A stretch of DNA of 63,537 nucleotides, counting the filler, from Folioceros fuciformis (Eukaryota), in the NCBI GenBank assembly GCA_049999805.1. It is 13 parts of 13 records of this genome, joined end to end, with 100 filler letters (N's around TTAATTAATTAA, not from the genome) between each part and the next. Parts side by side here need not be neighbours in the genome. Positions count along the whole stretch, not along the records: positions 19,706 to 37,885 come from JBNGIO010003811.1; 12 more parts are not named here. The stretch is one strand, 5' to 3'. A program made the translations under genes and the position numbers. Under the pieces are notes generated by a model. It had not been told where the DNA came from and did no database searches. It saw only the letters and a list, made by a program, of their open reading frames with translations. Shown piece after piece: positions 3,038-59,279 of this stretch. Numbering within the stretch: position 1 is the stretch's first letter; each line of letters opens with the position of its first letter.

Positions 3038-3049
3038 TGGTATCAGAGC
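3038..3049 (+). promoter_or_regulatory. tRNA-iMet primer-binding site
   Basis: Exact TGGTATCAGAGC. Confidence 0.65.
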
Positions 3050-3915: not shown

Positions 3916-3924
3916 GATCAGATA

Positions 3925-4840: not shown

Positions 4841-4852
4841 GCTCTGATACCA
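4841..4852 (-). promoter_or_regulatory. tRNA-iMet primer-binding site
   Basis: GCTCTGATACCA. Confidence 0.6.
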
Positions 4853-18839: not shown

Positions 18840-19060
18840 GAGCGTAGGGCAGTGGTGATGGAGAGTAGGTCAATGGTGATACGGCGATGGNNNNNNNNNN
18901 CGGTGATACGGCGATGGTGAGCGTAGGGCAGTGGTGATGGAGAGTAGAGCAGTGGTGATGAACGTGGAGCGTAGGGTGGTGGTATGGCATAGGTGTGATG
19001 AAGAGTAGGGCAGTGCTGATGAATGTGGAGCGTAGGGTGGTGGTATGGCATAGGTGTGTG
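18840..19060 (+). repeat. Degenerate minisatellite (agcgtagggcagtggtgatggagagtag-like units)
   Basis: Repeated GCGTAGGG/GTGGTGATG units spanning a 10-N gap. Confidence 0.75.
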
Positions 19061-19089
19061 TACAACTTTGCTATGCCATTGTGCGGCTA

Positions 19090-19605
19090 TGGGCCTAGGG
19101 TTTCTAAGAGGTGCTCTTTAGGGGTATGGACCTAGGGTTTTTAAGAGGTGCTCTTTAGGGGAAGAGTTTGGACGATGAAAATTGATGTAGGGTAAGGCAA
19201 TGTTCATTAGGGCTAAGGTTGTGTGTTTGTGTCCAGGTGAGGAAGGTACCAAAAAATGGTATACCGATAGGCTGGAGCAAGCAAGTAAGGTTTAGGGTAT
19301 AGCGGCAGGGCAAAGCGGAATGAGTTTAGTGTTTAGTAAAATAGCATAGCAGAATGAGATTAGGGTTTAGTGGCATGGCAGAGCAACAAGGTTTACAGTT
19401 TACAAGCATGGCAGCAGCAAAATGGATTTAGGGCATGACGGGGGAGAATGGATGTAGGGTTTTAGGGCATTGCGAAAAAAAAATAGGTTTAGGGTTTAGT
19501 GACATGATGGAGCAGAATAGGTTTAGGGTTTATCCGCATGGCAGAGTAGAGTGGGTTTAGGGTGTAGCGACAAGGTGGAGAAAAATGGATTAGGGTTTTT
19601 ATCAG
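19090..19605 (+). repeat. Degenerate array with recurring TTTAGGG(TTT) telomere-like motifs
   Basis: TAGGGTTT/TTTAGGG recurs roughly every 35-45 bp up to the scaffold end. Confidence 0.55.
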
Positions 19606-19939
19606 NNNNNNNNNNNNNNNNNNNNNNNNNNNNNNNNNNNNNNNNNNNNTTAATTAATTAANNNNNNNNNNNNNNNNNNNNNNNNNNNNNNNNNNNNNNN
19701 NNNNNCCACAAGTCGATGTTCCCTACGTATGCAGCGTCTGCTAATACTCGGCGTTTCGTANNNNNNNNNNNNNNNNNNNNNNNNNNNNNNNNNNNNNNNN
19801 NNNNNNNNNNNNNNNNNNNNNNNNNNNNNNNNNNNNNNNNNNNNNNNNNNNNNNNNNNNNTTTCAAGCAAGCCCGTGCTTTTAGCGGCTGCCTCTACGGT
19901 GGTTTCCTCTCACGGAGACCAGCCTCATAGGAGCTCGCA

Positions 19940-22929: not shown

Positions 22930-24680
22930 CGCCAATCTACCAGAGTTCGTAGGTGCCCCGCCTATCTGGATGCCTACCATTTCCCAGGAGTTACTCCTCA
23001 GCAGCCCATCATTGCAGAAGTTGCTCCTGATGTTCCTGAAATTGATAACATGCCTGCAGCGACAAGATTGATGCCCTGGATAATCTCATGGCAAGAGCAA
23101 TGCTTGCTGCAACCCACGTGCTTAAGCCTGCAAGCCTAGAGGAAGCTCTCAGATCACCTGATAAGGAAGGATGGATGAAGGCAATCCAACAGGAATATGA
23201 TTCTCTCATTGAATTAAAGACATGGGTGCTCAACCCACTCCCTCCCGGTCGCAAGGCAATTAAATGTAAGTGGACATTCAAACATAAGGTGAAGACTGAC
23301 AGAACCATCGAAAGACTCAAAGCACGGCTCGTGATCAAGGGCTACAGTCAGAGGCCCGGCCTCGACTATGGAGATAACATCTACGCACTTGTGGTGGCCG
23401 CTCAATCTGGTAGATTCCTCCTAGCAATTGCGGCTGAGCACGACCTTGATGTGCATCAACTCGACATTTCAACAGCCTTCCTCTATGCCACACTTAAGGA
23501 CGAAATTTATATGGAGCAACCACCAATGTACGTGGATCCCAAGAGACCTACTTGGGTTTGCAAGCTACTCAAGGGACTATACAGCCTTAAGCAAGCACCA
23601 GCTGAATTTGTTTTGCTAATTGACGGTCACCTTATCCAATTCGGCTTTGTCAAGACCTCAGCAGATCAGAACTTATACTTGCTGCAAAGGGAAGACAAGT
23701 TCTTGGTACTGGCCTTATATGTAGACGACTGCATTCTGTTCACAAATGATCCAAAGAAGATGCTTTTCGATGTGAAGGGAATGCTCGCTACCAGGTTTAA
23801 GATGAGGGACTTAGGACCCTTGGAATACTGTCTCAGAGTACAAATCGGTTGAGACAGAGAGGCAGGCACGCTATCTCTACTCCAGTCAAAGTACGTTCTT
23901 GATATTTTAGATAAGTTCAAGCTCTCATATGCTTGACCTGCTCCAACACCACTTCCAGCAAGAGTCAAGCTCACCTTAGCCGATTGCCCCACAACTGAAG
24001 TAGAAAAGGAGGACATGGCCAAGGTGCCTTATCTTAATACTGTTGGCAGTCTCATCTATTTTCACGGCTGGACACGCTACGACATTCCTATGCTGCATCT
24101 AGTGTAGCCGCAGTTTATGTCTAATCTTGGCAGGGCACACTGGATGTGTGTGAAGCGAATTTACCGTTATCTGAAGGGTACGACTCATCTTGGAATCACC
24201 TACAAGAGGTCAAGTAATGGAGTGCTTAACTTCGAGGGCTGGTCTGATGCCGACTAGGCATCCGACCCCGATGCTCGTTGAAGCGTTGCGGCCTATGTCT
24301 TCACCTTGGGAGGATCAGCTGTATCATGGTCAAGCAAGAAGTTTGCCATGATTTCCACATCAAGCGCTGAAAGTGAATATGGAGCCTTATCCAAGGCTGG
24401 AAAAGAAATTGTAGACTGTAGGCAAATCCTTGAAGACCTCAGCTACCCACAAGCAAATCCTACTGTCCTGCATTGTGATAGCATTGCAGCCATTGCCTTA
24501 ACCAAGGGTGATAGATTCCATGCTATTGCTTATCACTTTGTCAGGTAGCTTGCAGCTAGAGGCACCGTCAAGCTCTTATATGTTCCTACGGAGCTCAATC
24601 TAGCTGATCTCCTCACTAAGTTGCTAGGCAAAGCCAAGCACGAAAGACTCACCTCTGCCTCAGGCCTCGCGAACTTCAGA
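22930..24680 (+). pseudogene. Ty1/copia RT-RNase H, degraded
   Basis: PPGRKAIKCKW, LKARLVIKGY, QLDISTAFL, YVDD, SWSSKK; internal stops. Confidence 0.92.
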
Positions 24681-26389: not shown

Positions 26390-27760
26390 GATTCGTCTTC
26401 AGACAGCGGTCCCTGAAGGATGTCCACGGTATGCGAACCGGACCTGATGTCCGCCCAACAAACTTTTGGGCACGGGGATTCTGCCAGGATCTTCGGCAAA
26501 TAGATCCTCCGATTGCAGCACTGTAACGAGCCCAGCACGTCCCCTTCTGAGAAATTGTGTGGGTAGGGGCAAGTTACCCAGCGATGCTTGTTGCCACGAG
26601 CAGGAGCAGGAACACGAACGGGACCCTACAATGTGGTGGGACAGAAGACGAGATAAGAGAAGCTCCCCTCCCGTTCGCCTGATTTCCGACGGAAGGGGTC
26701 CGGCGAGGTGCTATGGTTAAACAACATGTTCAAGCCAGCTTGGTTGATGAGCAGCTCCGTTCCTTGGATGTGCAGATGGGCCACGGGGTCTCTCCTTTAT
26801 GAGCCCAGTACGCCGGATGAACCTGAACGTGGGAGGTGTGCAGGGTCGAGAATGAGCGTCGTCACGCCTGGAACCATGAGCATGTTATTTGCATTACACT
26901 GTACTCAAACTGTGTACAGCTAAGAAGGATTTGGTTGTGGGGCGACGAGTTCATGATCTCAGTGCCAAATTCGGGTATGGATGGGCAGAAAGGTGCACAG
27001 TGATGTGGTGCAGAGTCATTCCTACTAACTTGTTTGTTGCCATTGGCACCTGCCTGGTGGACATGTATACAAATGTGGCCAACTGGATGATGCACAAAAG
27101 GTTTTTGACAGCTTAGCCACCAAGAATGTGGTGACATGGACCACCCTGATTGCTGGGTATGCACAGCAAGGGTGCGGGCATGAGGCACTTGCCGTGTATG
27201 GACAAATGGAGCAGGAGGGCCTGGTTTTGGCTAACCATGCTACTTTTGCTTGCCTTCTGGAGGTCTGTGCAAGCCCAAGCGCCTTACAGAAGGGTAGGCA
27301 GCTGCATTCACAGGGTGTCGAAAGAGGACTCCTGCATGATGTAGTGGTGGGCACCTGCCGGGTGGACATGTGTGCAAAATGTGGTGAACTAAAGGATGCA
27401 CGCCAGGTTTTTGACGCCATGGCCACCAAGGATGTGGTGTCATGGACAGTGCTGGTGGCTGGGCATGGACAGACGGAGCAGGAAGATCTGCTTCTGGCTG
27501 ACCATGCTACTTTTGCTTGCCTTCTCGAGGCCTGTGCAAGACTTTTGCCCTACAGATGGGCAGGCGGCTGCACTCACAGATTGTTGAAAGAGGACTGCAG
27601 GATGACGTGGTGGTGAGCTCCTGCCTGGTCGACGTGTACGCAAAATTGGGTGAACTGGAAGATGCACGCCAGGTTTTTGACATGAACAGAAAGAATGTGG
27701 TGACATGGAATGCCCTCATCGTCGGGTACGTACAGCATGGGCTTGGTCGTGTGTCTTCCA
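26390..27760 (+). pseudogene. Truncated, frameshifted paralog of the PPR gene at 34033
   Basis: Nucleotide-level match to 34013-35990 (MWWDRRRDKRSS, VLWLNNMFKPAW, LKLCTAKKDLVVGRRVHDL, NVVTWTTLIAGYAQQG). Deletions and frameshifts; no E/DYW. Confidence 0.88.
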
Positions 27761-28159
27761 CAAGAGCTTGTACATAGCACTTGTACAAAGTGCATGTCAT
27801 GAATTAATCAATACTGTGAAATGGTGGTTCCGCCTTTAGCAGGGCATGCTCCTGGGATGTCTGCGGGGGAAGATGGGCCACGTACTGAGCACAGACCTAC
27901 ACCAGTCAGAATCAGGCTATACTCTTAGTTCGTATCCTGTACGCAAACTAACAATCAAACACTAATGACTACACAAGGTTTAAGACTTGGAATGTTGTGA
28001 CTATCCAGTTCTTGGCCTTTGTGCAGTCGTGGTCTAAGGCTCATCAATGGAACTTCCTAGCATGGTCCTGTCGGCTTAGACACTATACTTCTCACATGCC
28101 ATCGCCATGAATAAATTCCTCAGAATGTCTACCAATATGGCGTCAAGTGCTTAGAATTG

Positions 28160-29191: not shown

Positions 29192-32100
29192 ATGGATCGT
29201 AATCACATGACGCCGGTGTTGCTTCTGCTGCTGATGGGATGTGTGGCGGTGGCGGAGGCCAGGTTTGTTGTGGAGGAGAACAGCATCACCGTCGCCTCTC
29301 CCGCCTCCGCTGACAAGAAGAGCTACAACAGTGCTATCGGCAACTTCGGCGTGCCGCACTACGGCGGGATCATGCTCGGGAACGTCGTTTACCCTGGGGA
29401 AAATTCCATGGCCTGCGTTCCCTTCTCCACCAGCGTCAAGAACCCCATGCCCGGCGCGCTGCCGACTATTCTGCTCACGGATCGCGGAGGTTGTCGTCTG
29501 GTGTACGCTGTTTGATTTAGTACGCTGGTGTGGCGTGTCTTGTTTTGATCTGATTTGTCGGCGTGGTATCGCGCCGTAGCTCGTGATGGTGGATGTCGTC
29601 GGTCTGCGTGTACGGAATGTGTGTGGAATGTGTGTTTGGATGGAAACTTGTGAGCTTGATGTATTCCGGTCGGAAGTCCGCGCTTGAGCGTTTTGATCAG
29701 GGTTTTTGAGACAGTTATGCCGTCGAGCGACCAGGAGGCTCTGGTCGGTCGTCGGTTATTGTCGGAGAAAGTATCCTGACCAAGTCTGGATCTCGCTTGG
29801 CTGGCGGGTGCAGATTGTTTCTTTGCGAAGAAGGTGTGGAACGCGCAGCAAGCTGGAGCGGCGGCTGTTCTCGTGGCTGATGACAGGCCCGAACTGCTTA
29901 TCACTATGGATCAACCGGATTCGGATGCAGACGCGTACATGTACTTGCTGAATATCAGCATCCCGTCCGCGCTTATTGAGCAGAGCTTTGGGGACCAGCT
30001 CAAGAAGTGGCTGTCTTCCAAAACGGAGATGGTGACCCTGAATCTGGACTGGAGAGAGTCGCTGCCGCATCCCGACAATCGTGTGGAGTACGAGTTGTGG
30101 ACTAACAGTAACGATCAATGTGGGCCGAAGTGTGATAACATTATGGGATTTTTAAAGGATTTCAAAGGTGCTGCGGAGATACTTGAGCAAGGTTCCTATG
30201 TGGAGTTTACCCCTCATTATATAACGTGGTATTGCCCTCAGGCTTACTTGTTTAGCAAGCAGTGCAAGGCCCAGTGCATCAACAATGGCAGATATTGTGC
30301 TCCTGATCCTGAGCAGGACTTCACCATCGGTTACGACGGCAAGGATGTCGTGACAGAGAATTTAAGGCAGCTATGTGTGTTCAAGGTTGGAAAAGAGAAG
30401 CTGCAAAAGCCATGGGTGTGGTGGAATTATGTAACGGATTTCCAGATTAGGTGCCCTATGAAACAGCAGAAGTACAACAGGGCCTGTGCAGAAGAAGTCA
30501 TCAAGTCGCTTGGTCTGTTCCATTTCTCATTCTAGCACCCATAGATGCTTCCCTACTCAATTTGCAGCAGGCAGAAGCACCATGAATAACGTCCTTGGTT
30601 TGACCTTTTACAGGCCTACCGCTGGATGACATCAATCGATGTATGGGTGACCCTGAGGCCAATTTGGACAACGAGGTTTTGCTGAAGGAACAGGATGCAC
30701 AGGTGAAACATTTGGTCTCTTGTTTCGGATGCAGTGTAGAAGGAGTCCATCTTACAGATTGTGTTTCCTCGTGGGACATTTGCCTTTCATTGATGCATCT
30801 CTGTGACACACGTTGATAGGTTGGACAAGGAGATCGTGGAGATGTCACAATACTGCCCACGCTTGTCATCAACCAGAGGCAATACAGAGGTTTGTTGTCT
30901 GTCTGTCTGTGCTTTTGTGCATTATTCTTGCTTTAGGAGCCGCGTATCTGAGTCGAGGTTGACTTCAGGAAAGTTGGAAAGTTCGGCAGTTCTGAAGGCC
31001 ATTTGCTCAGGGTTCCAGGAAGGAACTGAACCCTCAATCTGTTTGAACGGAGGTGCGTTTATTAGTTTCATGGCAAAGTGGACGGTGTTATCGCTCATTG
31101 CAAAGAGTGCTGGATTAATTTTGTATCCTTCGTCAGGCATAGAGACAAATGAATGTCTGACGAATAATGGTGGCTGCTGGCAAAATACAAAGCAGAATAT
31201 TACGGCATGCAAAGTATGACCACTCCACCCCCTACACCTGTAAACAAAGTCTGTGTCATCTCTGGATTTGATCTGATCGCTATACTCGTCTGGAGTGGGC
31301 AGGACACATTCCGTGGTCGAGTTTGTCAGTGTCCTGTGGTTGCTGGCGTTCAATTTCAGGGTGATGGCTACAGCTCGTGCGAACGTAAGTTACAAGACGG
31401 GTTGGTAGAATACCACGGGAAGCAAGCAGTTGTGCTGCTGGTAATGCCTAATGCTGTCTACTAACTGGAGTTTTGTTTCAGCAATTGGCACCGGGCGTTG
31501 CACTATTGAAAATGGTGGTTGTTGGAAAGAGACAAGGGACGTTGTAACCTTTTCTGCTTGTTCGGTGAGTGGACTCTCCCCTTTGGTTTGTGGTGAATGA
31601 GGTCTGCGTAATCTATTCTGCACTGTTGACTCCTGGCTGTGTGTGGCAGGATTTGAAGCTGCAAGGATGCGAATGTCCCAGTGGCTTCAAGGGCGATGGG
31701 GTTAACAGCTGTGTTGGTACGTCCGGACCCTGGCCATAACAATCGCTGTCATTGTCAACCTTGTAATTGTTGCGATTTGACTTGACGTTTCGAGTCATGC
31801 TGTCGTTGGCCGATTGTGACGAGCTGAAAGGGTCCGCGTGTTGCCTGCTTTGGTGCGTCATCAGATATCGACGAGTGTTCAGAGAAAACAGCGTGCACAT
31901 GCTCACAGTGCTCATGCAAGAACACATGGGGTAGCTATGATTGTTCATGCTTAGGGTCTCCCGATCTCCTATATATTCGCGAGCAGGATACCTGCATAAG
32001 TAAGTTGAAGAAGGTCGTTCTTTTGGGTTGTAGGGTTCTTTGTTCTAGTTAGTAGGGTACAGTCCGACGGGTTTCAAATGCCCGTGACCTTCATTGTGGC

Positions 32101-32407: not shown

Positions 32408-34032
32408 GAATTAATGTATCGTCAGGCGTACACAGCTGTGTGTAAGTTGTAACTGTCCGTCAAATGCTTTTGACTCCGGCGTCGTTTGAAATCGGGGTTT
32501 TGTCCATGAGGCCAATGACCCAGTGGCTGCACGGGTGTAAAGGTTTTAGGACTTCCAAGCCGCCTCTGCCCAAGTCAGGACTCGGCACCTGCCTTAAGCG
32601 GTCGCTGGCCAGACTCGCGGAGAACTGGTTGTTATTCCGTGATTTGGTAATCGCGGGTGTACCATATCAAGTACAAGTCTGTGTCGAATGAATCGAAGGC
32701 AACGCAACTGCTATCCGGCTCCTCTTTCGTTATGTAGGTCGTCATTATTAAATTACTAATCGCCGTAAGAATTGGCGGGCCTTTCACTTTCTTTCTCTCT
32801 TCTTTTTTGTTTTTTCAATGATTGAATAATGTTATAAATGCGTGTCAGAAATGGTGTAAGTCACACCTGGAAGGGGCCAGCTAAATAATATGTAGGTAGT
32901 ACTGCACGTAGTCAGGCGTAGAACGTTTTGTCCAAGTCCACCATGGAACCCTAAACCCTAACCTCCGCGTTTTTCTTACGTGTCGACGACAGAAAGAGGA
33001 CACTTTTTACAGTACATGGCACACGTGTGCGAACTACAGTATGTATAGGACACCGGTTACTCCAGACCCTGCATGTGCCGAACCATGTCACGTCTACTTC
33101 TCTACCTTCCAGTTCGTCATTGATTGAAATGGGCAATTTTGATTAAAATTGTTAATATATTTGGATTAGTTATAACAAAAAAAAAAAGAAGGCTCAAAAG
33201 TCTGAATCCCACATGATGTGGACTCCATCCTGCTTCAGCCGCTCATTCGTGTTCTCCCACCGGAGGTGTGATGGGCCACATTGTTCCGGCGTGGAATCAA
33301 AGTGGTTGTCACTCTCGTGAACCAGCATCTAGGGATCTTCTTAAAACCAAAAGTGCTCCAAAACTCACATCCGCCTGCAACTAGCCAACAAACTCTGAGT
33401 CTAAACCAGAGCTAAGACTAAGATATTTGCTCGTTCAGGAGCAGCTCCTTTGAAAACCGTGCGTCTTTCTTGATAGCTAGGGAATGCACTGTGTTGCCAA
33501 TCCATTGCCTTTTCTTCGATTTTGTAGGAGAAAGGGCAAGAGTACTTGCATTTCATCTAAAAGGGCTGATGGGGGCTCAGTTCCCAGTCCAAGTCCCTGC
33601 CCACCGTTTGGTGGAAATCGAAGGACTTGACGGCCAAGTCTGGACGTATCGGGAACTGACGAGGTGAGAAGACGAGCTCGTCAGAAGCTCAGGAAATGGG
33701 TTGCAGGTGCCAAGGCTGTATTCTCCGGTGCAGGTCCAGGTTCAGGTCCAGGTTCGGGTTCGGGCTCGGGTACCAATGTCCAGGTGAGGTGCACGAGCCA
33801 AATGCTACCATCTCCAGTTACTATCCAGCCTTGCTATGCTGCAGCAATTTGCCAGTTCCTGAGCACAGCTGAACTGCCTCCTGCTGAACAGGTTTGTAGG
33901 GACTGCCATTCTCGGTCCAGGTCAGGCCACCAACCCTGGCCTGGCCGCAGTGAAGGGTTGATGGGCGTGTAGAGGACTTGTTTGTGAGCGGACTGCTCTG
34001 GTCCGTGCGCCTCAGACAGCGGTCTCTGAACC

Positions 34033-36933
34033 ATGGCCACAGGATGGCGACCGGATCCGGTGTGCACTATACCAATTGGGGACTGGACAGGGATGCTACC
34101 AGGAGCTCCTCCTAACCTCGTTGGTGGAAGTCGACCCCTGGCAAGCAAAGCCTCCAGGTTCAGCAGTGTAAGGGGAAAGTGTGTGGGTAGGGACAAGTTT
34201 TCCAGCAATGGTCCTTGGCAGGAGCAGGAGCAACTGTGGCAATACTTTTTTGTGGACCCGAGCATGTGGTGGGGCAGCAGACCAGATATGAGGAGCTCCC
34301 GCTCGCCTGACTTCCGGCGTAACAGGTCCGGTGAGGTGTTGTGGTTAAACAACATGTTGAAGCCAGCTTCGGTTGATGAGCAGCTCGTTTCCTTGGATAT
34401 GCAGATGGGCCACGGTGCCGCTACTTCCAAGTGGAACTCTCCGGGTAATTTTGAATCTAGAAGGCGCGCGGGTTGGGATGTGGGCTCTCGGTGCAGCAGT
34501 GTAAGCAGCCCAGCGCATGTCCATTCGAGAAAATGTGCAGGTGGGGATGGGATTGTCAACGACGGTCGTCGCCAGGAGGAAGAGCTCTTGTGGCAACAAT
34601 TCTTCATGGACCCGTCAATGTGGTGGGATAACAGACGAGAGAAGAAGAGCTCCCGTTCGCCTGACTTCCGTAGTAGGGGGTACGACAAGGTGCTATGGTT
34701 GAACAACATGTTCAAGCCAGCTTGGGTTGATGAGCAGCTCAGTTTATTGGATATGCAGATGGCCCATGCTGCCTCTCCTTCCGAGTCCAGGGATACGAGG
34801 GGCGTCGTTACTGCTGTCACGGTGAGCATGCTATGTGAGCAGGGGAAGCTTTCTGAGGCCGTTGGAGCCCTGGAATCTCTAGCGCACACAGGCTCTGATG
34901 TTTCTCAGTCTCTGTTTTACACTGTGTTGAAACTGTGTACGGATAAGAAGGATTTGGTCGTTGGCCGTAGAGTTCATGATCTGGCTGCCAAACTTGGTTA
35001 CGAGTCCAGTGCATACTTGGGGAACCATGTCTTGCGAATTTATGCATGCGAAGGCAAGCTAGAGGAGGCTATGGATGTGTTCACCAGGGTGGGCAAACCG
35101 AACGTCCTCATGTGGTTTTCCATAATCTCTGCACATGCTAAGCATGGGAAACCCAAGGAGGCCATACAACTCTACCATGAGATGCGCAGGTCAGGAGTGA
35201 AGGTGAATGGTCACGTTTTTGTAGCTACCCTTCAGGCTTGCGCGCTTGCTGCCGACTTGGAATCCGGCAGAAAAGTGCACCGTCACATCTTGCGCAGTGG
35301 CACTCATATTAACTTGTTTGTTGGAAACTGCCTCGTGGACATGTACGCAAAATGTGGCCAGCTACAAGATGCACGCCAGGTTTTTGAAAGCATGGCCAAG
35401 AAGGATGTGGTGACATGGAATGCTCTGATTGCTGGGTATGCACAGCAAGGACTGAGCCAAGAGGCGTTCGTTGTGTATGGACAAATGGAGCAGAACGGCC
35501 TCATTTTGGCTAACCATGTCACTTTTGCTTGCCTGCTGAAGGCCTGCGCAAGTACTGGCGCCTTACAGAAGGGCAGGCAGCTGCACTTGCAGATTGTTGA
35601 AAGAGGACTGATGGATAACGTAGTGTTGGGCACCTGCTTGGTGGACATGTATGCAAAATGTGGTGAAATGGAAGATGCACGCCAGGTCTTTGACAGCATG
35701 GCTACAAAGGATGTGGTGACATGGAATGCCCTCATTGCAGGGTACACACAGCAAGGACTCGGCCGAGAAGCACTTCTTCTGTATGCACAAATGGAGGAAG
35801 CAGGCCTTATCTCGGCTGACCATGTTACTTTTGCTTGCCTTCTGAAGGCCTGTGGAAGCAGCGGCGCCTTACAGAAGGGCCGGCAGCTGCACTCGCAGTT
35901 GGTCGAAAAGGGACTGCTGGATAACGCAGTAGTAGGCACCTGCCTGGTGGACATGTATGCAAAATGTGGTGAACTGGAAGATGCACGACAGGTCTTTGAC
36001 AGGTTGGTCGCAAAGGATGTGGTGACATGGAACGCCCTGATATCTGGGTACGGTGCTTGTGATGCAGGTCGCAAGGCACTGGCTTGTTTCGAGCAGATGT
36101 TGGTTGCCGGTGTCAAGCCTGATGATGCAACTTTCACTTGCCTTCTAGTGGCATGCAGTCACGAGGGACTGGTCCGTGAGGGTCGCAAACTCTTCGATTC
36201 CATGTCCGAACAGCATGGCATCGAACCAACTCTTGAACATCACAACTGCATGATTGACCTTCTCGGGCGCGCTGGCCACTTAGACGAGGCAGAAATGATG
36301 CTCTTGTCTCGTGAGGGCCGAAGCAATGCTGTGGGCTTGAGGGCTCTGTTGAATGCGTGCAAGATTCACGGAGACATAGAGAGGGCGACTTGGTGTTTCA
36401 AAAGCATTGTGACCTTGGACCCTCGAGACGCGCTGGCATATGTGCTCATGGCCAACGCCTATGCCGATGCAGGTCGGTGGTCCGACGTGGACACGATCGA
36501 AACACGCAGAAGGGTAGCAAAAGCTACCAAGAAACCTGCAGTGGCAACCATTGAGGTGGACAAGGAGGTACACCGATTCCTGGTGGGAGACAGGAGCGAG
36601 GACATCGCGCTGAAGCTCGAGAGCACTAACACACGTGCGAAGCAGGAAGGAGGCCACGTTCCTCACACAAAGTTGGTGTTGAAGCCCTGGTGTGAGCAGG
36701 AGAAGGAAGATGCGCTTTGCGGTCACGCCGAGAAGCTAGCTTTGGCGTTTGGTCTCTTGCACACTCCGAGTGGGACGCCTTTGGGGGTAACGAAGAATCT
36801 ACGCATGTGCAGCGACTGCCACAGTTCTACGGAGATCATGTCAAGGCTTGAACGGAGAGACATTGTGGTGAGGGACGGCTACCGAGTGCACCGATTTGCA
36901 GACGGTTGTTGCAGTTGCAAGCGTCGGCCGTGA
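34033..36933 (+). CDS. PLS-class PPR protein with E1/E2 and DYW:KP-type deaminase-like domain (candidate U-to-C RNA editing factor), with two N-terminal PDF-like motifs
   Basis: Intronless 966-aa ORF with ~14 P/L/S motifs; KKPAVATIEV, GHAEKLA, CSDCH; terminus CCSCKRRP. Confidence 0.93.
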   Translation: MATGWRPDPVCTIPIGDWTGMLPGAPPNLVGGSRPLASKASRFSSVRGKCVGRDKFSSNGPWQEQEQLWQYFFVDPSMWWGSRPDMRSSRSPDFRRNRSGEVLWLNNMLKPASVDEQLVSLDMQMGHGAATSKWNSPGNFESRRRAGWDVGSRCSSVSSPAHVHSRKCAGGDGIVNDGRRQEEELLWQQFFMDPSMWWDNRREKKSSRSPDFRSRGYDKVLWLNNMFKPAWVDEQLSLLDMQMAHAASPSESRDTRGVVTAVTVSMLCEQGKLSEAVGALESLAHTGSDVSQSLFYTVLKLCTDKKDLVVGRRVHDLAAKLGYESSAYLGNHVLRIYACEGKLEEAMDVFTRVGKPNVLMWFSIISAHAKHGKPKEAIQLYHEMRRSGVKVNGHVFVATLQACALAADLESGRKVHRHILRSGTHINLFVGNCLVDMYAKCGQLQDARQVFESMAKKDVVTWNALIAGYAQQGLSQEAFVVYGQMEQNGLILANHVTFACLLKACASTGALQKGRQLHLQIVERGLMDNVVLGTCLVDMYAKCGEMEDARQVFDSMATKDVVTWNALIAGYTQQGLGREALLLYAQMEEAGLISADHVTFACLLKACGSSGALQKGRQLHSQLVEKGLLDNAVVGTCLVDMYAKCGELEDARQVFDRLVAKDVVTWNALISGYGACDAGRKALACFEQMLVAGVKPDDATFTCLLVACSHEGLVREGRKLFDSMSEQHGIEPTLEHHNCMIDLLGRAGHLDEAEMMLLSREGRSNAVGLRALLNACKIHGDIERATWCFKSIVTLDPRDALAYVLMANAYADAGRWSDVDTIETRRRVAKATKKPAVATIEVDKEVHRFLVGDRSEDIALKLESTNTRAKQEGGHVPHTKLVLKPWCEQEKEDALCGHAEKLALAFGLLHTPSGTPLGVTKNLRMCSDCHSSTEIMSRLERRDIVVRDGYRVHRFADGCCSCKRRP

Positions 36934-37985
36934 GAGTACGTAGTGAGGAAGCGTAGGCAGTACACGGAGGGGTGGCTGCCATCGCTGAGGAGTTCGGCAT
37001 GTTCTTTCCTTGTCCGTCTAAACCTAGGGCACGGCTTGCTAGCGCTGATCGTAGTCATCTCTCACCGCACCAGGAAGAAACAGAATCGAGCGGCGTCTGC
37101 CCTGTGTGGACTCGCCTGCGATTCTGCTGAGTCGTGTGAATCATCAGAGTTTGGGGCCCCGCTGCAGAGCTCTGATCTTGCTCTGCAGCGTTGGATCTCG
37201 CACCGCTGCAGAGTTGGATCAGAGCTCTGATTCTTGGCTCCATGCCTTGGAATCGAAGCTGCCTTTGCAGGACTCGTCTTGGAAAACGTGGGCCGGGTCA
37301 TCGCTCTCCAGGTTGATGTGAACTTTGTAGGTACTAAAGTTTGTACGCTACCCGATTCTGCTTCATGTGTTATGTTGAGTCCGACGACGACAAGGCAAAG
37401 GACGAGCTGTTGGAAAGATAGGTAGTACGCATGAGTAAATAAAAGGATAAAGTAAACAAAGATAAAATAATGGGTCGTTACTAATTGGAAGGCCGACGGG
37501 ATTTCTGGTTGTTGAACTTGTGAGACGTGGACGGGACTAAATCGATACGTAGGTTGTCTATTTACGAGCAAGTATTTTTTGGAAATCGTCGGGTGGCACG
37601 CGGGTCTATGTCAGTGGTTAGGACTCCGTCCTCGATCAGGGCGACGGCAGCGACTTAACCGACGTCAGTTTAGAGGGTCGGCCGGCCAAGCCGTGCGTGC
37701 ACTTGACCTTGTCGTGGCTAGCCACGCAAGGAAGTCTAGGCCTGGCACGGTCACGTACAGTACGCCGAGGGCTTTAGGGTTTTTATGTAAATGCTCACGA
37801 CCCGCCGCAGTTGCTGCCGCGTGAAGTGTCTGGCAGGCGTTCCGTTGCGAATGTCTGCTGAGATTCTTGGCGCGGCGCTGGGAAANNNNNNNNNNNNNNN
37901 NNNNNNNNNNNNNNNNNNNNNNNNNNNNNTTAATTAATTAANNNNNNNNNNNNNNNNNNNNNNNNNNNNNNNNNNNNNNNNNNNN

Positions 37986-38770
37986 AAGATATCCCTCCCC
38001 TGAATACTCTTTACTGGGTTCCCAGTTGTTGAAATCCCCAACAATAGAACAAAAACGAGAAGCTGCAACCATGATGGCTGAGTCAGGCAGGGTACTGACA
38101 AAGCATGCGTCAGAAGCACAAGACATGGAATGGTTTGAATAGCCATTGTTTGGCAATGGAGACTTCAAGGCACCTGCAGGACTGACTCTACACAAAGATA
38201 TAGGATGCAGCTCCTACAAAATGGATGCATGCACTTGTTCACTAGAAAGTGAAAACAAAGAGGACAAATTTTACCTGGAGCCCATTCAATAAGCTCAACA
38301 GCATGAAAGGGAGTTCGATGGAGACCCATATCCTCATATCTGCGATGCATACTAGCGGGTCAATCCCCCCTTCCCAACCCTCACCACTGTGGACCATCAA
38401 AGGAGGTACACAAAGCGTCACGTACGCTNNNNNNNNNNNNNNNNNNNNNNNNNNNNNNNNNNNNNNNNNNNNNNNNNNNNNNNNNNNNNNNNNNNNNNNN
38501 NNNNNNNNNNNNNNNNNNNNNNNNNNNNATAGAACAAAAACGAGAAGCTGCAACCATGATGGCTGAGTCAGGCAGGGTACTGACAAAGCATGCGTCAGAA
38601 GCACAAGACATGGAATGGTTTGAATAGCCACTGTTTGGCAATGGAGACTTCAAGGCACCTGCAGGACTGATTCTACACCAAGATATAGGATGCGGCTACT
38701 ACAAAATGGATGCATGCACTTGTTCACCAGAAGTGAAAACGAAGAGAACAAATTTTACCTGGAGCCCATG
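37986..38770 (-). pseudogene. Fragment of a starch-branching enzyme class III (BE1/SBE3-like) gene, partly duplicated across a gap
   Basis: Exons RYEDMGLHRTPFHAVELIEWAPG and SRFCSIVGDFNNWEPSKEYSGEG resemble the CBM48 N-terminus of branching enzymes. Truncated by the scaffold end. Confidence 0.65.
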
Positions 38771-38774
38771 AGAG

Positions 38775-39690
38775 GTTTCATATTGCCTTGGAACACAACT
38801 TCATCGTGATCCTGAATCTGGAACACTTACGATTCACCAAGAGAAGTACATTTTTTATATGCTTTTTTAAGTACAAACTCACTAATGCCAAGCCAGCTCT
38901 TACCCCTCTTGAGGCAGGCTGCAAGTTGTCTAAGGAATAGTCACATGTTACTGATGCTGAGAACTTGGAAATGAAAAATGTTCCCTATGCCCAGGTTGTG
39001 GGTTCTCTCATATACTGTTCCAACAACAGCAAGCCAGATATAAAACTTCCAGTGAGCATGGTTTCTCAACACCTGAAGAGCCCAGGAAGAGCGTATTGGT
39101 TAGCAATGAAAAGAATTTTACGTTATCTCAAAGGCACCATTGATTATGGTATAAACTATACAAAGCAAGGCTATGATGGAGAGGAGTTTACGCTCATCGG
39201 CTACTACAATGCTGACTAGGTAGAAGACCCAGACATGAGAAGGTCAGTCTCTACTTATTCATTTTTACCCGTAGGAGGCGCTGTGACCTAGTCGTCAAAG
39301 AAAAAGACAACGATGTCACTTTCATCAACAGAGGCAGAATGCTCTGCCCTAACACAAGCCTCTAAGGAAGCAAAATAGTTGTGAAGACTGTTGGCTGATC
39401 TTGGACAGACACAAAAGGGCCCAATCATCATATACTGTGACAATCAATCTACTTTGGCATTGGCACTAAACCTAGTGTTTCATGCTAGGACCAAACATGT
39501 GGAGGTCCACCACCATTTCATACGACATGCTATTGAGACGGGACAGGTTAAACTGGAGTACGTGCCAACGGATTCAAATCCAACAGACATACTTACCAAA
39601 TCCTTACCTAGAGTGAAGCATCATCAGTTCAAAGAGGCGATAGGAGTGTTCAGTCCATGTCCTCCTTCCAACATGTCCAGCAGAGTTTAG
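38775..39690 (+). pseudogene. Ty1/copia RT C-terminus and RNase H
   Basis: VPYAQVVGSLIY, KRILRYLKGT, CDNQS, HARTKHVEVHHHF; stops present. Confidence 0.9.
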
Positions 39691-40298
39691 GAAAAATTGT
39701 CCGAGGAGCTGCAGGTAGGTATAAATAAGCTCAGCAATAATAGTTTACTTTCTACCTAGGTGTGTCCACTCCTAAGAGGACTAGTCACAACCCTTAGAGC
39801 TAGAGGGGAATAGGAACTTCGACTTTCCCCTTCTACTCATTTTCTAGAGTTCCACGAAGTTCGGGTCGAAGTCAGGTGCGTACTCTTCAAATTTGTCCTC
39901 GTCTTCATCCATCCACACCATTGTGGAGGCAAAACCCCGGGCACTGATTGCCAACGGGTTCCACCTTTAGTGGCCACACTTATCCCATTGTCGTTGAGAC
40001 ATTGGGTTTCGTTCCCACGAAGGAGCGATGGGGTTCCTTGCTACTGTGGATGGAGGGTCGGACTTGATCAACTCGATGATGGATTCGAGGGCTCCTCTCC
40101 AGCTCCGATCAGGCGTAGGACAGGCCTCGCTGTCCGGCGGTCAGCTGCACCTCTCTCGGTGCCCACAAACTCACTCCAGTCACTACAACGACTCTAACNN
40201 NNNNNNNNNNNNNNNNNNNNNNNNNNNNNNNNNNNNNNNNNNTTAATTAATTAANNNNNNNNNNNNNNNNNNNNNNNNNNNNNNNNNNNNNNNNNNNN

Positions 40299-41314
40299 AC
40301 AGTCCGCCATTGCCCTCAGCCAGAATCCGGTTTTCCATTCGAGAACGAAGCATGTGGAGCTGAGATTCCATTATATACGTCAGCTGGTGGAAAGAGGCGA
40401 TGTCGAAAGGCGCCAGCGGAGTGGAGAGTGGCGATAGTAATTGCAGGCTAGGATAGGGTTTTTTTTTTAATGCTTTTACTTGGACCGGAGCCGCTTGGAA
40501 TCTAAGACCCCTGACAGACTTTATAGCGGAAAGACCGCCACCACCATGTATAAGAGGCCAGTTTGAGGCCTGGGAAATTAGCAAAAATCAGCCCAAATTA
40601 CCCAACCTTGCAGGAGTCTAGCGATGGCCGTTGCCGGACAAGAGGTCCAGGCAAGCGCATGCCCGTAGCAATATGGGGGTGTGGGTGCAGGTGGTGGATG
40701 CTCCGTGATTGAGCCCGAGGACGAATCGGGAGGTGGAACCTCGCCGAGTGGGAGACGAGCTCCTCAGCTATCCTCGGGGCGATCACGTGGGGTGGTGAAG
40801 ANNNNNNNNNNACAGTCCGCCATTGCCCTCAGCCAGAATCCGGTTTTCCATTCGAGAACGAAGCATGTGGAGCTGAGATTCCATTATATACGTCAGCTGG
40901 TGGAAAGAGGCGATGTCGAAAGGCGCCAGCGGAGTGGAGAGTGGCGATAGTAATTGCAGGCTAGGATAGGGTTTTTTTTTTAATGCTTTTACTTGGACCG
41001 GAGCCGCTTGGAATCTAAGACCCCTGACAGACTTTATAGCGGAAAGACCGCCACCACCATGTATAAGAGGCCAGTTTGAGGCCTGGGAAATTAGCAAAAA
41101 TCAGCCCAAATTACCCAACCTTGCAGGAGTCTAGCGATGGCCGTTGCCGGACAAGAGGTCCAGGCAAGCGCATGCCCGTAGCAATATGGGGGTGTGGGTG
41201 CAGGTGGTGGATGCTCCGTGATTGAGCCCGAGGACGAATCGGGAGGTGGAACCTCGCCGAGTGGGAGACGAGCTCCTCAGCTATCCTCGGGGCGATCACG
41301 TGGGGTGGTGAAGA
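40299..41314 (+). repeat. Exact 503-bp duplication across a 10-N gap (copia RNase H fragment fused to gypsy LTR-like repeat)
   Basis: 40299-40801 is identical to 40812-41314. Confidence 0.85.
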
Positions 41315-41414
41315 NNNNNNNNNNNNNNNNNNNNNNNNNNNNNNNNNNNNNNNNNNNNTTAATTAATTAANNNNNNNNNNNNNNNNNNNNNNNNNNNNNN
41401 NNNNNNNNNNNNNN

Positions 41415-42880
41415 ACATGGAATACCGGATTGAGGGTCATAGCAATAGCAGATTGATTGGACATGGAATACCGGATTGAGGGTCATAGCAATAGCAGATT
41501 GATTGGACATGGAATACCGGATTGAGGGTCATAGCAATAGCAGATTGATTGTCTCAAAGGAGTGGGGTAGATCCTACTTGTGCTTCACCCAAGCCAAATA
41601 GGAATTGTCGTATCCAGATGATTTCTTTGGCAGCAAAGGAAGTGGCTGCATACTCTGCTTTCGTAGATGATAAGCAAACTGTGGAGAGTTTCTTAGATGC
41701 CCAAGATATGGCAGTTCCATTTAATCTCATGCAATATGCCGCAATTGACTTGCAAGTATCCAGGTCCCCAGCCCAATTAGCATCAGAGTAGCATGTGAGG
41801 TGTAGCTTACCTTCATTGGCATTATTAGCATGATATACCAAGCCTTTGCTCTTAATGCATTCAAGGTATCGAAAAATATGCTTGACAAAAGTCCAATGCT
41901 ATCTTCCTGGATTGGAAATATACCTTGAGGGTACATTCACAACATGTGAGATGTCCAGGCGCGTCCATATGGAAAAGAAAAGTAGGCATCCAACAACCTC
42001 ACCATAGGGTATAGAGGACATTTCGAAGGATTCCTTAGCAGATGTAGGACTATTTTGTAGCAACACTTTATCTTGAGCAGCTACGATGTGGTGGATGGAT
42101 GGGCTTCGGAATCGTTGAAGCGCTTGAGGAGCTGATCCACATAATGTTCTTGAAGCGCTTGNNNNNNNNNNTAATGTTCTTGAAGCGCTTGAGGAGCTGA
42201 TCCACATAATGTTCTTGATGAACGCAGATAGAATAATTAGATGGCAATAATATAAATTGAATTCCAAAGGCAAAGCGCAGAGCGCCAACGTCAACCATGT
42301 TGAATTTGTTTGAGAGTAAATCTTTGACCTTTTGAATAATACGGTTATCACTCCCAAATATAATATTGTCATCCACATAAAGAGCGATGATGGCGAGGCT
42401 GGTACCCTCTTGGAGATGAAAAACATTCTGGTCCGCTTGGAAACGCTTGAAGCCACATGATAAAAGAAAAGCATCTATAACCTCATACCATGCTTTGGCA
42501 AATTGCTTCAATCCATAAATTATGCAGAGTAATCTACATACCTTATGCAGATTAACGACATACCCCTCAGGTTGCTCCATGAAAATAGCCTCATGTAGAG
42601 CGCCATTGAGAAACGTTGTCCTTACATCCACTTGCTGCATGGTTAACTAATATTGAGTTGCATAAGCTATCAAGATACGAATAGAGGTCAATTTCACCAC
42701 GGGGCAATATAAATTGTCTGCTTGGAAGTCAAGGCTTGGTGTTTGGGTAAAGCCACGAGCTACGAGGTGGGCCTTGTAAGGGGCGATGGAGCCATTGGGG
42801 TTGAGCTTGAGCTTAAAAGTCCACTTGCATGTTATTGGTTTCTTGCCTGGTGGTAGGTCTACTAATTTCCATGTGGATTG
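41415..42880 (-). pseudogene. Ty1/copia RT-RNase H, degraded, ending in a 46-bp triplication
   Basis: QVDVRTTFLNG, YGLKQ, LYVDD, YSDANWAGD, SWASKK. The 46-bp unit repeats at 41415, 41461 and 41507. Confidence 0.9.
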
Positions 42881-43033
42881 TCCATCAGAGATTGGTATTC
42901 AGAATCTATGGCCTTACGCTACTCAGCTGATTGNNNNNNNNNNNNNNNNNNNNNNNNNNNNNNNNNNNNNNNNNNNNTTAATTAATTAANNNNNNNNNNN
43001 NNNNNNNNNNNNNNNNNNNNNNNNNNNNNNNNN

Positions 43034-44233
43034 TAAATTCTTTTCTAATTTATTATAGAATATAGGTTTATTTAAATATAATAAAGATCTAGTCTTATTT
43101 AGTAGCTTTAGTTTTTACTTTATTCTTAATTTCTTTAATCTTAGTCTCTATAGTATTATCTTTAATTTATTAAGTTATTTTATTTAGTTCTTAGAGGTCT
43201 TTATTAGCTACTAGTTTAAGATTATTAAAGATAATTAATCTATCTTTACTAGCTTTAAGTATTATTCTTTATACTAGCTTATATATTTTATAGTTAGGTC
43301 TTTTACTTATTATATCGGCTCTAGTATTTTCTTTTCTAGTTATATAAAAGATCTTAAAGTTATACTTAGCTAAGTATAGAGCCTATTAAGCTTATTATAG
43401 AGTTAGTTTTTACTTAGTTATAAAGTATATTAGATTCCTATAGTTAGTCTATACTTCTATAGTATACTTTATTTCTTATAGCTATAGTCTTTATATTTTA
43501 AATACTATTACTATAGCTAGTAGTTTCTTATTATAGATATTATAGTTAAGTTCTAGCTTAGTTAGTTTTCTTAAGTAGTTATATACTAGATATTAGTATT
43601 CTTTATTATCTTCTTATATTAGTATATANNNNNNNNNNTAAATTCTTTTCTAATTTATTATAGAATATAGGTTTATTTAAATATAATAAAGATCTAGTCT
43701 TATTTAGTAGCTTTAGTTTTTACTTTATTCTTAATTTCTTTAATCTTAGTCTCTATAGTATTATCTTTAATTTATTAAGTTATTTTATTTAGTTCTTAGA
43801 GGTCTTTATTAGCTACTAGTTTAAGATTATTAAAGATAATTAATCTATCTTTACTAGCTTTAAGTATTATTCTTTATACTAGCTTATATATTTTATAGTT
43901 AGGTCTTTTACTTATTATATCGGCTCTAGTATTTTCTTTTCTAGTTATATAAAAGATCTTAAAGTTATACTTAGCTAAGTATAGAGCCTATTAAGCTTAT
44001 TATAGAGTTAGTTTTTACTTAGTTATAAAGTATATTAGATTCCTATAGTTAGTCTATACTTCTATAGTATACTTTATTTCTTATAGCTATAGTCTTTATA
44101 TTTTAAATACTATTACTATAGCTAGTAGTTTCTTATTATAGATATTATAGTTAAGTTCTAGCTTAGTTAGTTTTCTTAAGTAGTTATATACTAGATATTA
44201 GTATTCTTTATTATCTTCTTATATTAGTATATA
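43034..44233. repeat. Extremely AT-rich 595-bp unit (duplicated across 10 N) with RIP-like dinucleotide composition
   Basis: By eye, no CpA or TpG dinucleotides and abundant TpA; 43034-43628 equals 43639-44233. Confidence 0.85.
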
Positions 44234-44333
44234 NNNNNNNNNNNNNNNNNNNNNNNNNNNNNNNNNNNNNNNNNNNNTTAATTAATTAANNNNNNNNNNN
44301 NNNNNNNNNNNNNNNNNNNNNNNNNNNNNNNNN

Positions 44334-44570
44334 GTCCTGCTCCCCTGCTCACTTGGCCTGCACCATTCGCAACAGGGTAGGATCCCTGAGGTCCTACTCC
44401 CCTGCTCACTTGGCCTGCACCATTCGCAATAGGGTAGGATCCCTGAGGTCCTGCTCCCCTGCTCACTTGGCCTGCACCATTCGCAACAGGGTAGGATCCC
44501 TGAGGTCCGAAGGAAGGCCCCTGCTCACTTGGCTTGCACCATTCGCAACAAGGTATGATCCCTGAGGTTT
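44334..44570 (+). repeat. 57-bp tandem repeat, ~4 copies
   Basis: gtcctgctcccctgctcacttggcctgcaccattcgcaacagggtaggatccctgag units at 44334, 44391 and 44448, plus a variant fourth. Confidence 0.9.
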
Positions 44571-46490
44571 GAAGGAAGGCTCTGAACTGTGGATGGGGCC
44601 CTAACCCTAACTAATTAAAAAAAAAAAATGAGTGTGAGTGGAGGAGACGGACGAGAGGGATAAAACAAAGTAGGTGTCCGAATCCGAACACCTACTTTGT
44701 GCCCTATGACCGAACAAAGCGGGCACAAATGTTATGTGAAAGAACCCTGTTCGTATCGGTATTCCATACAGTCTTCTCTTACCCTAAAGGGGGCAAGGGG
44801 CCTAATNNNNNNNNNNNNNNNNNNNNNNNNNNNNNNNNNNNNNNNNNNNNNNNNNNNNNNNNNNNNNNNNNNNNNNNNNNNNNNNNNNNNNNNNNNNNNN
44901 NNNNNNCCATACAGTCTTCTCTTACCCTAAAGGGGGCAAGGGGCCTAATACCCTTTGGTCTTTGGCCTACTTGGGTTATTCCTTAAAACCTCGTGTTGTT
45001 CCTCGTAGATGGGACTTTTTATTTTTCTTAATAATTTGAAAAATATTGAACATATATTTTTTATAAATTAAAAAGATAATAAATGAGTAGCATCCAAATA
45101 TTTATGATGCTAAATACACATTCCATATTACCACCTTAGCTTACCTTAGATAAGTCTTTATTATTCCACATCATGATATTTTTGTTATATTTATCATGAT
45201 GTTTTTTTGGGAACAATGATGTTTGAAGGGGCTAATATTCTTTTGTGTTTGGCCGGCTCATTCTTCCTCCCATCTTTTGAGTACAAGGGACTTTCCATGT
45301 TTTTTTCAATAATAAAAAATACCTCACTCTTATAATATCCTCAAAATGAGGATAGATTAAAGTCTTTCATTCCCCTTAATCTTTGATACGTGACAATGAA
45401 TAATACGTAGATGATAATTTTATCTTAATATTAAGAAAATAATTCATGAAAAAGGAAGAGAAGGACGGAAAGGAAAGCGCGATATGTAGTTGCACCGGAT
45501 ATTGGGCGAAATTGTGGCTCGATAATTTGGGGCCATGCATTCGCCGTCTACGCCCGACACACACAGAATCTGATTCGTCCAGGCACAGGAGTCACAGATT
45601 GCACAAAACCTGAATGTCCCCGATCACAGGACATGTGGCATAGCAGGGTGGCCGCCTTCCCTTGCCTTTTTTTGGTTTTTTTATTCCCGTTGCTAATTGA
45701 AGTCGTGGACCTGTGAAGGGGCCTGCGGCTCTCCTTCGCTGCCATTCTCGGCGGCCAAGCTTGGGTTGACGCGCGCCTTCTGTTGGCCCTCCAATTTCTA
45801 TGCTGTGGCAATCCCTCATAGGCGAGTGGCAACCACGTGAAGTTGGGCACACCTGGCGAGTGTGGGACACAAGGAGCCCTGTGATGCAATTTTCGGTTCC
45901 TGGGCATGCATTTGCGGCTTAGAGCATCTGGTGTTGGTCATTCGGGGACGGCACGCAGCTGACTCTTCCGAAACCGCTCTTTGTCGGTGAAAAAAACATG
46001 GATTTAGAGGGATTTGGAAATGTCTCAGCTCATCGCTTCCAATTGCTCTTCCGCCACCGACATGTGTCGTAAACAGCTGGGTTCTATCAATGTGGACGAG
46101 GTTGCCAGGAACGTGACAGGGAAATCAGGTGCACACGTGACTACGTCGTGGTGCCTGCTGCAGTGTGCTGATATGTATGTCGTCTTGGCGTTGGGTTCTT
46201 CAGTGCTCACCATTTTGCAGGCTCCAATAGCGTCAGGTTGTGGCTGTCACGGAACACCCGAACAAACTGTTCAGGATTGCTCTGTCCAGCGGAAGCACGC
46301 CCTCTGCCTGGCCTGTTGTACCGGTGGCAGTCTGGGCAGGCTTGGCACGCTCCAATGCTTTAGTCTTCTCTTAGGGCATTCTCGTTGTACCGAGAAACGG
46401 CAGCATGATGGTGCGGAAATGTCATTGGAAGGATTGCCTTATGTGTGGACAAGCAATGCCTAGCCTGCTGTCCCTTGGTATTCTCTTAAG

Positions 46491-58963: not shown

Positions 58964-59279
58964 AGCTCAGACCGCAAAACCCAGAACCCACACCCATACG
59001 AATAGACCCGTTGTACACTACCTACACTTCCTTATAAACAAAACACCAGTAATACCTCCTAAACTGCTGGGTGACAAACGGAACCAACATCCAATGTTTA
59101 CGATGTCAATGTCGGTTGGTAAACAAGAACAACGGAATCCGACAATAGACCTTATCCTCACGAGCTTGATCTACCTCTCTTCTTTCTGAAGTGTTGGCCT
59201 GTGCTGGCCAGGTCCTCAGGGACGAAAGTAATGCACAAACTGCGGTATATGAATATGATCTCAACTCCTGAATGCCTAA

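Follow-up and report, generated by a model that had tools for sequence, protein, structure and literature searches.

Editing of uridine to cytidine (U-to-C) is the least understood form of pyrimidine editing, because the amination on which it depends runs energetically uphill, and what is known of it comes from enzymes designed by consensus, which remain cross-linked to the RNA they act on. Within a 63,537-nucleotide stretch drawn from the genome assembly of Folioceros fuciformis (GCA_049999805.1; hereafter the window), positions 36529-36933 of the plus strand encode a DYW-type domain that ends in Lys-Arg-Arg-Pro (KRRP) and that a sequence-only reading had taken for an intact U-to-C factor of the DYW:KP class. 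The question raised by this locus is whether it holds a native, expressed gene for such a factor. We find an intact and transcribed gene, and argue that it probably encodes a nuclear PLS-class pentatricopeptide repeat (PPR) RNA editing factor whose DYW:KP domain is of the GRP type and would act in U-to-C editing.

Hornwort DYW:KP proteins have been divided into sub-groups named by their C-terminal ends, DRH and GRP (Ichinose et al. 2022, PMC9478123, citing Gerke et al. 2020). GRP proteins lack the otherwise conserved terminal Asp, and have Glu instead of the Lys with which it pairs (PMC9478123). U-to-C activity has been shown only for the consensus-designed enzymes KP2, KP3, and KP6 (PMC11845758). 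The GRP-consensus designs KP2 and KP3 converted approximately 26% and 22% of uridine to cytidine in Escherichia coli, with no C-to-U conversion, and their HAA and AxxA mutants lost activity; KP6 carried out C-to-U editing as well, in human cells (PMC9478123). The substitution K88A abolishes U-to-C editing in all three enzymes (PMC11845758; PMC11713852) and raises C-to-U editing (PMC11845758), and Chun et al. (2024) describe the same lysine together with a second one 20 residues upstream (PMC11713852), which matches K68 of the protein described here. In the mechanism proposed by Hayes et al. (2024), attack of the lysine on C4 of uridine yields a Schiff-base conjugate, which is resolved in planta (PMC11332814).

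An Intact and Transcribed Gene

An open reading frame (ORF) of 966 amino acids (aa), unbroken from ATG to stop, occupies 34033-36933 on the plus strand; its final 134 codons and its stop make up the DYW-domain stretch. An in-frame TGA at 34027-34029, directly upstream of the ATG, rules out an upstream start in the same frame. Translation of the stretch gives KKPAVATIEVDKEVHRF...CGHAEKLALAFGLL...TKNLRMCSDCHSSTEIMS...GCCSCKRRP followed by the stop (in full, KKPAVATIEVDKEVHRFLVGDRSEDIALKLESTNTRAKQEGGHVPHTKLVLKPWCEQEKEDALCGHAEKLALAFGLLHTPSGTPLGVTKNLRMCSDCHSSTEIMSRLERRDIVVRDGYRVHRFADGCCSCKRRP and stop), and the strings quoted in the sequence-only reading are all found at the positions given for them: KKPAVATIEV, CGHAEKLA, TKNLRMCSDCH, and the terminal CSCKRRP. 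That the frame is not due to chance follows from its matches to the Pfam families for the DYW deaminase (DYW_deaminase, PF14432; aa 874-963, E 6.2e-32), for PPR repeats (several families, E down to 3e-72), and for the E motif. Translation of the minus strand opposite 36529-36933 yields only frames riddled with stops. A DYW hidden Markov model (HMM) built here scored 1.3e-54 on the domain and, run over the whole window translated in all six frames, detected no other.

Contigs of four coded sequencing runs were aligned to window positions 33400-37700. One of these (X1) is a DNA run, and another (X3) comes from an older study under the same organism label; no run is on record as RNA, and X3, whose kind is a guess, is treated as RNA solely because of its spliced contig. 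Record 1 of X1 covers 33400-34158 without a break, whereas record 9 of X3, a contig of 530 letters, consists of 33521-33780 and 33889-34158, the two pieces being contiguous in the contig, which reaches 126 nt into the coding sequence. Because the X3 contig splices out a GT-AG intron that the X1 contig retains, we conclude that the gene is transcribed; an intron of 108 nt in the 5' untranslated region (UTR) is spliced, and the coding part is without introns. Further X3 pieces match the window with zero differences at 34712-34851, 35246-35355, 36141-36544, and 36837-37416. From 36837 onward, record 7 of X1 and record 15 of X3 both include the KRRP codons and the stop, again with zero differences, so that this unusual end is confirmed in two runs of the same organism label. 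Pieces from two other runs, X4 and X5 (organism labels B and C), were rejected as representing this gene: they are 88-196 letters long with 4-11 differences and resemble paralogues.

A DYW Domain of the KP Class, GRP Sub-Group

The domain carries KKPAVATIEV in place of the PG box, HAE instead of HSE, and the terminal triplet RRP rather than DYW; counted from the second Lys, it is 133 residues long. HMMER alignments to 9kfx and 7o4e place a 4-residue gap after GDRS, for a net deletion of three residues relative to the DYW:PG domains of OTP86 and a synthetic PPR-DYW protein. The KP class as described lacks three to four residues of DYW:PG (xHP) and has Ala or Cys after the zinc-binding His, and the domain agrees on both points. 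In a comparison of 30 KP rows with 33 PG rows, nine alignment columns discriminate between the classes; the KRRP protein agrees with KP at eight of them (K0, A3, A5, D24, A66, L84, V86, and V119) and with neither class at the ninth (G85). Positions 3 and 5 are G and S in PG domains, and position 66 is Ala in 30 of 30 KP rows and Ser in 33 of 33 PG rows. The deaminase signature HxE(x)nCxxC is present as H65-A-E67 and C93-S-D-C96, as are both K88 and M92 of the KP class (TK88NLRM92C); in all, H65, E67, K68, K88, M92, C93, C96, H97, H120, C127, and C129 are retained.

Used as a query, the last 187 residues matched 72 proteins. The best matches, 57-65% identical, end in ...CGGRP (P0002, P0003, P0006, and P0008) or in ...GDRH and similar, the most identical single domain being that of P0007, with a GDRH end (69% over 134 columns). 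The best named matches are a Diphasiastrum protein (53%, ending in DYY) and Adiantum proteins (49%, ending in DYF). A search with the whole protein found no exact record, its nearest match being P0002 with 60% identity over 68% of the query.

In a maximum-likelihood tree of the 72 domains and that of the KRRP protein (73 rows, 138 columns, quick search), the latter falls in a five-row clade with the four GGRP proteins, with a support of 96 in the Shimodaira-Hasegawa-like approximate likelihood ratio test (SH-aLRT). This clade is nested in a 31-row clade in which all domains have HAE (SH-aLRT 96), and 34 of the 36 HSE domains fall in a separate 35-row group. The DYW:KP assignment made from the sequence alone, which called for a phylogeny with other DYW classes, is thus upheld by the KPA and HAE motifs, the short deletion, eight of nine discriminating columns, and placement among the KP and not the PG domains. 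Forcing the domain to join the 37 HSE/HTE rows cost 42.5 log-likelihood (lnL) units, with a p-value of 0.042 in the approximately unbiased (AU) test, which is marginal.

Six residues differ from those held by at least 80% of KP rows: A26 (S in the consensus), G85 (L), E101 (K), G116 (A), Y117 (H), and R131 (D, but G in GRP proteins). None of the six is a catalytic or zinc residue. Two of them are informative as to sub-group: E101 substitutes Glu for the conserved Lys that follows CxxCH, a GRP trait, and R131 marks the loss of the third-last Asp, so that apart from the change of G to R the protein fits the description of GRP proteins. Position 101 varies among the four GGRP relatives, being E in two, T in one, and Q in one. 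Instead of the strict Gly-Arg-Pro end of the sub-group the protein has Arg-Arg-Pro, and the residue before this triplet is Lys, not the Gly of the relatives. Membership in the DYW:KP class and its GRP sub-group is supported by these comparisons. Given the clade shared with GGRP proteins, the KP states, the retained residues, and the deletion relative to DYW:PG, KRRP is a two-residue variant of the GGRP end found in all four nearest relatives, in agreement with the variant RRP terminus proposed at the outset.

E2 was modelled together with the DYW domain in AlphaFold, at a mean predicted local distance difference test (pLDDT) score of 92.6. Structurally, the model is closest to 9kfx_A, from a synthetic PPR-DYW/RNA complex (E 2e-19; template modelling [TM] score 0.82; root-mean-square deviation 2.5 over 179 columns), and it also matches the structures of OTP86 and DYW1; the solved structures matched are PG-type DYW domains only. 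With the open ORF, the full set of catalytic and zinc residues, this confident fold, and the spliced RNA contig, the description of the factor as intact has held up.

The PPR Array and Its Predicted Target

Upstream of the DYW domain, segmentation by eye gives 15 PPR motifs of 31-36 residues, arranged as four P1-L1-S1 triplets followed by P2-L2-S2, and then E1, E2, and DYW. By motif content this is the P2-L2-S2-E1-E2 layout of the PLS class that characterizes PPR-DYW editing factors. The residues at position 5 and the last position of successive motifs are TQ, TS, NN, FN, VN, ND, NN, AN, TD, ND, AN, TD, ND, TT, and NN. In the PPR code, N with D specifies U, T with D specifies G, and N with N specifies a pyrimidine. 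Applied to the P and S motifs, the code predicts the RNA signature Y-n-n-U-Y-n-G-U-n-G-U-n-Y at positions -16 to -4.

Midway along the array (window 35310-36050) lie three tandem units of 306 nt, one P1-L1-S1 triplet each, which are 80-82% identical. This degree of identity suggests that the array grew by triplet duplication.

Proposed Function and Its Alternatives

We put the probability that this gene encodes a nuclear PLS-class editing factor of the DYW:KP, GRP type, acting in U-to-C editing, at roughly two in three. As in other members of its family, the protein would be imported into the chloroplast or mitochondrion, where the 15 PPR motifs together with E1 and E2 would bind one stretch of single-stranded organellar RNA. 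A uridine lying approximately 4 nt 3' of the S2 motif would then enter the zinc site (His65, Cys93, and Cys96, with Glu67), and Lys88 might attack its C4, as proposed for the synthetic KP enzymes, such that the base would come to be read as cytidine. A sign of selection is that the reading frame stays open here for 2.9 kb, in contrast to the frameshifts in two paralogous PPR stretches of the window.

Several points weigh against this proposal. The activity of natural DYW:KP proteins was described as unknown in February 2025 (PMC11845758), and of seven consensus designs no more than three showed activity, one of which, KP6, edits C to U also (PMC9478123). K88 and K68, though necessary for U-to-C editing, are conserved in the aligned DYW:PG rows as well and are therefore not diagnostic of its direction. 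The AU test is marginal, and the HSE/HTE group used in it was named after the tree had been seen. Finally, the domain departs from the KP consensus at the six positions listed above, and its end branch, at 0.31, is the longest in its clade (0.15-0.22 in the others).

The direction of editing might also be reversed. The protein could work mainly, or additionally, as a C-to-U deaminase, in the manner of KP6 in human cells: that enzyme is bidirectional, single substitutions switch the direction of editing (PMC9478123; PMC11845758), and in the KRRP protein the HxE and CxxC machinery of a deaminase is intact and the model superposes on C-to-U enzymes. We nevertheless consider this unlikely, as the domain groups with the GRP sub-group and not with the lineage behind the KP6 design, the GRP designs KP2 and KP3 showed U-to-C and no C-to-U activity in E. 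coli (PMC9478123), and K88, which restrains C-to-U editing, is present.

The six departures, the terminus among them, and the long end branch bear equally on whether the protein is active at all. Together with the very large size of the family and the two decayed copies in the same window, they would suit a catalytically weak or dead member that serves only as an RNA-binding specificity or stabilizing factor, or else a young pseudogene that is still unbroken. Such an outcome appears improbable for a gene that keeps a 2.9-kb ORF with every catalytic and zinc residue, encodes a domain modelled with confidence, and is transcribed and spliced.

The existence of this gene is in itself unsurprising, since by published counts it is one of probably very many in these lineages: it adds an ordinary new member to the known DYW:KP family, one whose tail is slightly unusual and whose N-terminus bears two additional motifs. 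As an intact, expressed, native gene of GRP type it is nonetheless a usable candidate for native reconstitution, and its KRRP terminus is a natural variant in which the importance of the final residues can be gauged.

N-Terminal PDF Motifs

Residues 1-276 have no Pfam match. They contain two copies of a motif, at aa 63-125 and 179-243, that can be written LW..FF.DPS.WW..R...SSRSPDFR....VLWLNN..KPA.VDEQL; at the nucleotide level the copies form an internal direct repeat of 258 nt, 76% identical, with a spacing of 354 nt. An exhaustive phmmer search with residues 57-246 against 1.84 billion representatives gave 512 matches at E <= 1e-3 and 89 at E <= 1e-10, one of them a Populus protein named "protein OSB1, mitochondrial-like". 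Among the matches listed (130 of 149 scanned), 26 have an SSB domain and nine have PPR repeats, and the PDF motif pairs of OSB-like proteins can be aligned to both copies column by column. Because of the OSB1-named match and the SSB-bearing proteins among those listed, the module is identified by sequence similarity as the PDF motif of the organellar single-stranded DNA (ssDNA)-binding OSB proteins.

A structure model of the region encoded by window 34201-34770 shows each copy as a helix, short beta strands, and a helix, with a disordered linker between the copies; the mean pLDDT of 10-residue blocks is 83-96 in the first copy and 90-97 in the second, and most of each motif exceeds 90. Foldseek found no match to this model in the PDB at E <= 0.001 (best 3.5), and a wide VIA-align search gave no Z of at least 5 (best 4.6), so that for this model the searches establish neither a new nor a known fold.

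The PDF motif is not peculiar to this gene. Among 120 proteins listed by the whole-protein search, 114 were new (six had already been returned by the C-terminal search), and 36 of these 114 PPR proteins carry one to three PDF motifs ahead of the PPR array; the words that seeded this search were taken from the first 500 residues, which enriches it for PDF-bearing proteins. Twelve of the 36, in records of lycophytes, ferns, and mosses, end in HSE...GDYW, for which reason the motif was rejected as a KP-specific feature; Diphasiastrum, Adiantum, and Ceratodon are among the sources. In the C-terminal search only three of the 72 matches have it (two ending in GGRP, one in SDRH), many of these proteins possibly being N-terminally incomplete. 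By these matches the PDF module is widespread in PLS PPR proteins of seedless plants. We found no discussion of a PDF-PPR fusion in the searchable full-text literature; a review that names both terms omits the fusion, and OSB and PDF are both absent from a survey published in 2026 on domain fusions in editing factors. This apparently undiscussed architecture may merit a study of its own.

The occurrence of the motif in canonical HSE...GDYW proteins gives it the look of an accessory module rather than the main function. One conjecture, which we hold to be a long shot, is that the KRRP protein is a working native U-to-C editor whose PDF modules serve as functional clamps on single-stranded nucleic acid. 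They might help to keep the organellar RNA in place or anchor the factor at the nucleoid, and might aid completion and release of the edited product, a step at which the synthetic KP enzymes, built without such modules, would fail and so stay cross-linked to RNA. That the protein instead acts chiefly on single-stranded organellar DNA, in the manner of OSB proteins, and does not edit is very improbable: although its N-terminal motifs are homologous to PDF motifs and that of AtOSB1 is reported to be sufficient for ssDNA binding (PMC6963530), Pfam finds no SSB/OB domain in the whole protein, the remainder is a complete editing-factor architecture, and the motif also precedes the canonical HSE...GDYW domains.

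Features of the Locus and Its Surroundings

The coordinates of the gene and its parts are collected in Table 1.

Table 1. Features of the KRRP gene, in window coordinates
Feature	Position	Strand	Basis or remark
5' UTR exon 1, minimum extent	33521..33783	+	X3 record 9; joint shiftable by 3 bases ('cag' on both sides)
5' UTR intron, 108 nt, GT...AG	33784..33891	+	GT at 33784-85, AG at 33890-91; skipped in X3 contig
5' UTR second exon, up to start codon	33892..34032	+	Covered by X3 record 9
Coding sequence, 966 aa and stop, intronless	34033..36933	+	ORF list, Pfam domains
PDF motif 1, aa 63-125, WWGSR...SPDFRR...LWL	34219..34407	+	PDF HMM built here, i-E 1.2e-19
PDF motif 2, aa 179-243, WWDNR...SPDFRS...LWL	34567..34761	+	PDF HMM built here, i-E 7.7e-26
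PLS-type PPR array, 15 motifs, aa 259-765	34807..36327	+	Pfam PPR families; boundaries set by eye
E1 and E2 motifs, aa 766-832	36328..36528	+	Pfam E_motif PF20431, aa 779-841, E 8.5e-12
DYW:KP domain, aa 833-966 (133-residue type counted from second K)	36529..36930	+	Pfam, tree, alignments, model
HAEK: zinc-binding His65, Ala66, catalytic Glu67, Lys68	36724..36735	+	All four invariant in 30 KP rows
K88-NLR-M92-C93-SD-C96-H97: Lys88 and CxxC zinc ligands	36793..36822	+	K88, M92, C93, C96, H97 invariant in KP rows
KRRP terminus and stop codon	36919..36933	+	Four nearest relatives end in GGRP
3' UTR, minimum extent	36934..37416	+	X3 record 15 covers 36837-37416, zero differences

Two further PPR copies lie in the window, in which only the KRRP gene is intact. 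A relic paralogue at 26448-27774 (+), approximately 6-7.5 kb upstream on the same strand, has a PDF motif split over two frames (...SRSPDFRRKGSGEVLWLNNMFKPAW...) followed by frameshifted PPR pieces. A PLS-type PPR gene at 55121-58966 (-) is broken over four frames; its last parts are an E motif and then a PG-like box, AWKQPGQS, after which the DYW HMM found no DYW domain in six-frame translation. Unless assembly errors account for the frameshifts, this gene is probably a pseudogene.

Other content, at 14365-15963 (-), 23049-23849 (+), 29780-30532 (+), and 50441-54206 (-), consists of copia-type pieces (integrase and reverse transcriptase), a vacuolar-sorting-receptor (VSR) exon, and a leucine-rich repeat (LRR) receptor kinase lying in two overlapping frames. 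The VSR exon is 71-74% identical alike to angiosperm, Amborella, Ginkgo, Selaginella, and Diphasiastrum proteins and is uninformative as to lineage. The affinity of the domain to GRP and DRH proteins, which the literature places in hornworts (PMC9478123), would suggest a hornwort host; hornworts, lycophytes, and ferns are the lineages with U-to-C editing. The window has 37 runs of N that add up to 1996 bases and follow a regular pattern, comprising pairs of 44 N set 12 bases apart and runs of 100 or 10; they cluster at 613-6783, 18094-19860, 37886-44906, and 61738-62917 (e.g., 37886-37985, 38429-38528, and 40199-40298) and look like masked or withheld repeat units rather than random gaps.

Comparison with Known Systems

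With OSB proteins the KRRP protein has in common a PDF motif of approximately 55 residues (W..F..P..WWDNR..K....PDFKHK..G.ALWL...P.WV). In OSB proteins an OB/SSB domain precedes the motif, whereas here that domain is absent from the Pfam matches and the motif stands N-terminal to a PPR array, and on these grounds classification as an OSB protein was rejected.

The DYW:PG factors for which structures have been solved, namely OTP86 (7o4e/7o4f), DYW1 (7w86), and the synthetic PPR-DYW protein (9kfx), share with it the fold, the zinc and Glu site, and the PLS-E1-E2-DYW layout, and phmmer matches between them range from E 7e-48 to 1e-29. They differ in having the PG box, HSE, three extra residues, and the DYW end, in belonging to a separate clade, and in catalyzing C-to-U editing.

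Proteins of the DRH sub-group belong to the same KP class, and one of them, P0007, supplies the most identical domain, but they keep Lys101 and Asp131 and fall outside the five-row clade. The closest likeness is to the GRP hornwort DYW:KP proteins and to the KP2 and KP3 designs, with which the protein shares the KPA box, HAE, the 133-residue domain, Glu after CxxCH, and an end in ...RP. It joins four ...CGGRP proteins in one clade and differs from the sub-group in ending K-R-R-P rather than G-G-R-P and in five further departures from the KP consensus. KP2 and KP3, to which it is likened by description and not by sequence, are synthetic designs, whereas the KRRP protein is native.

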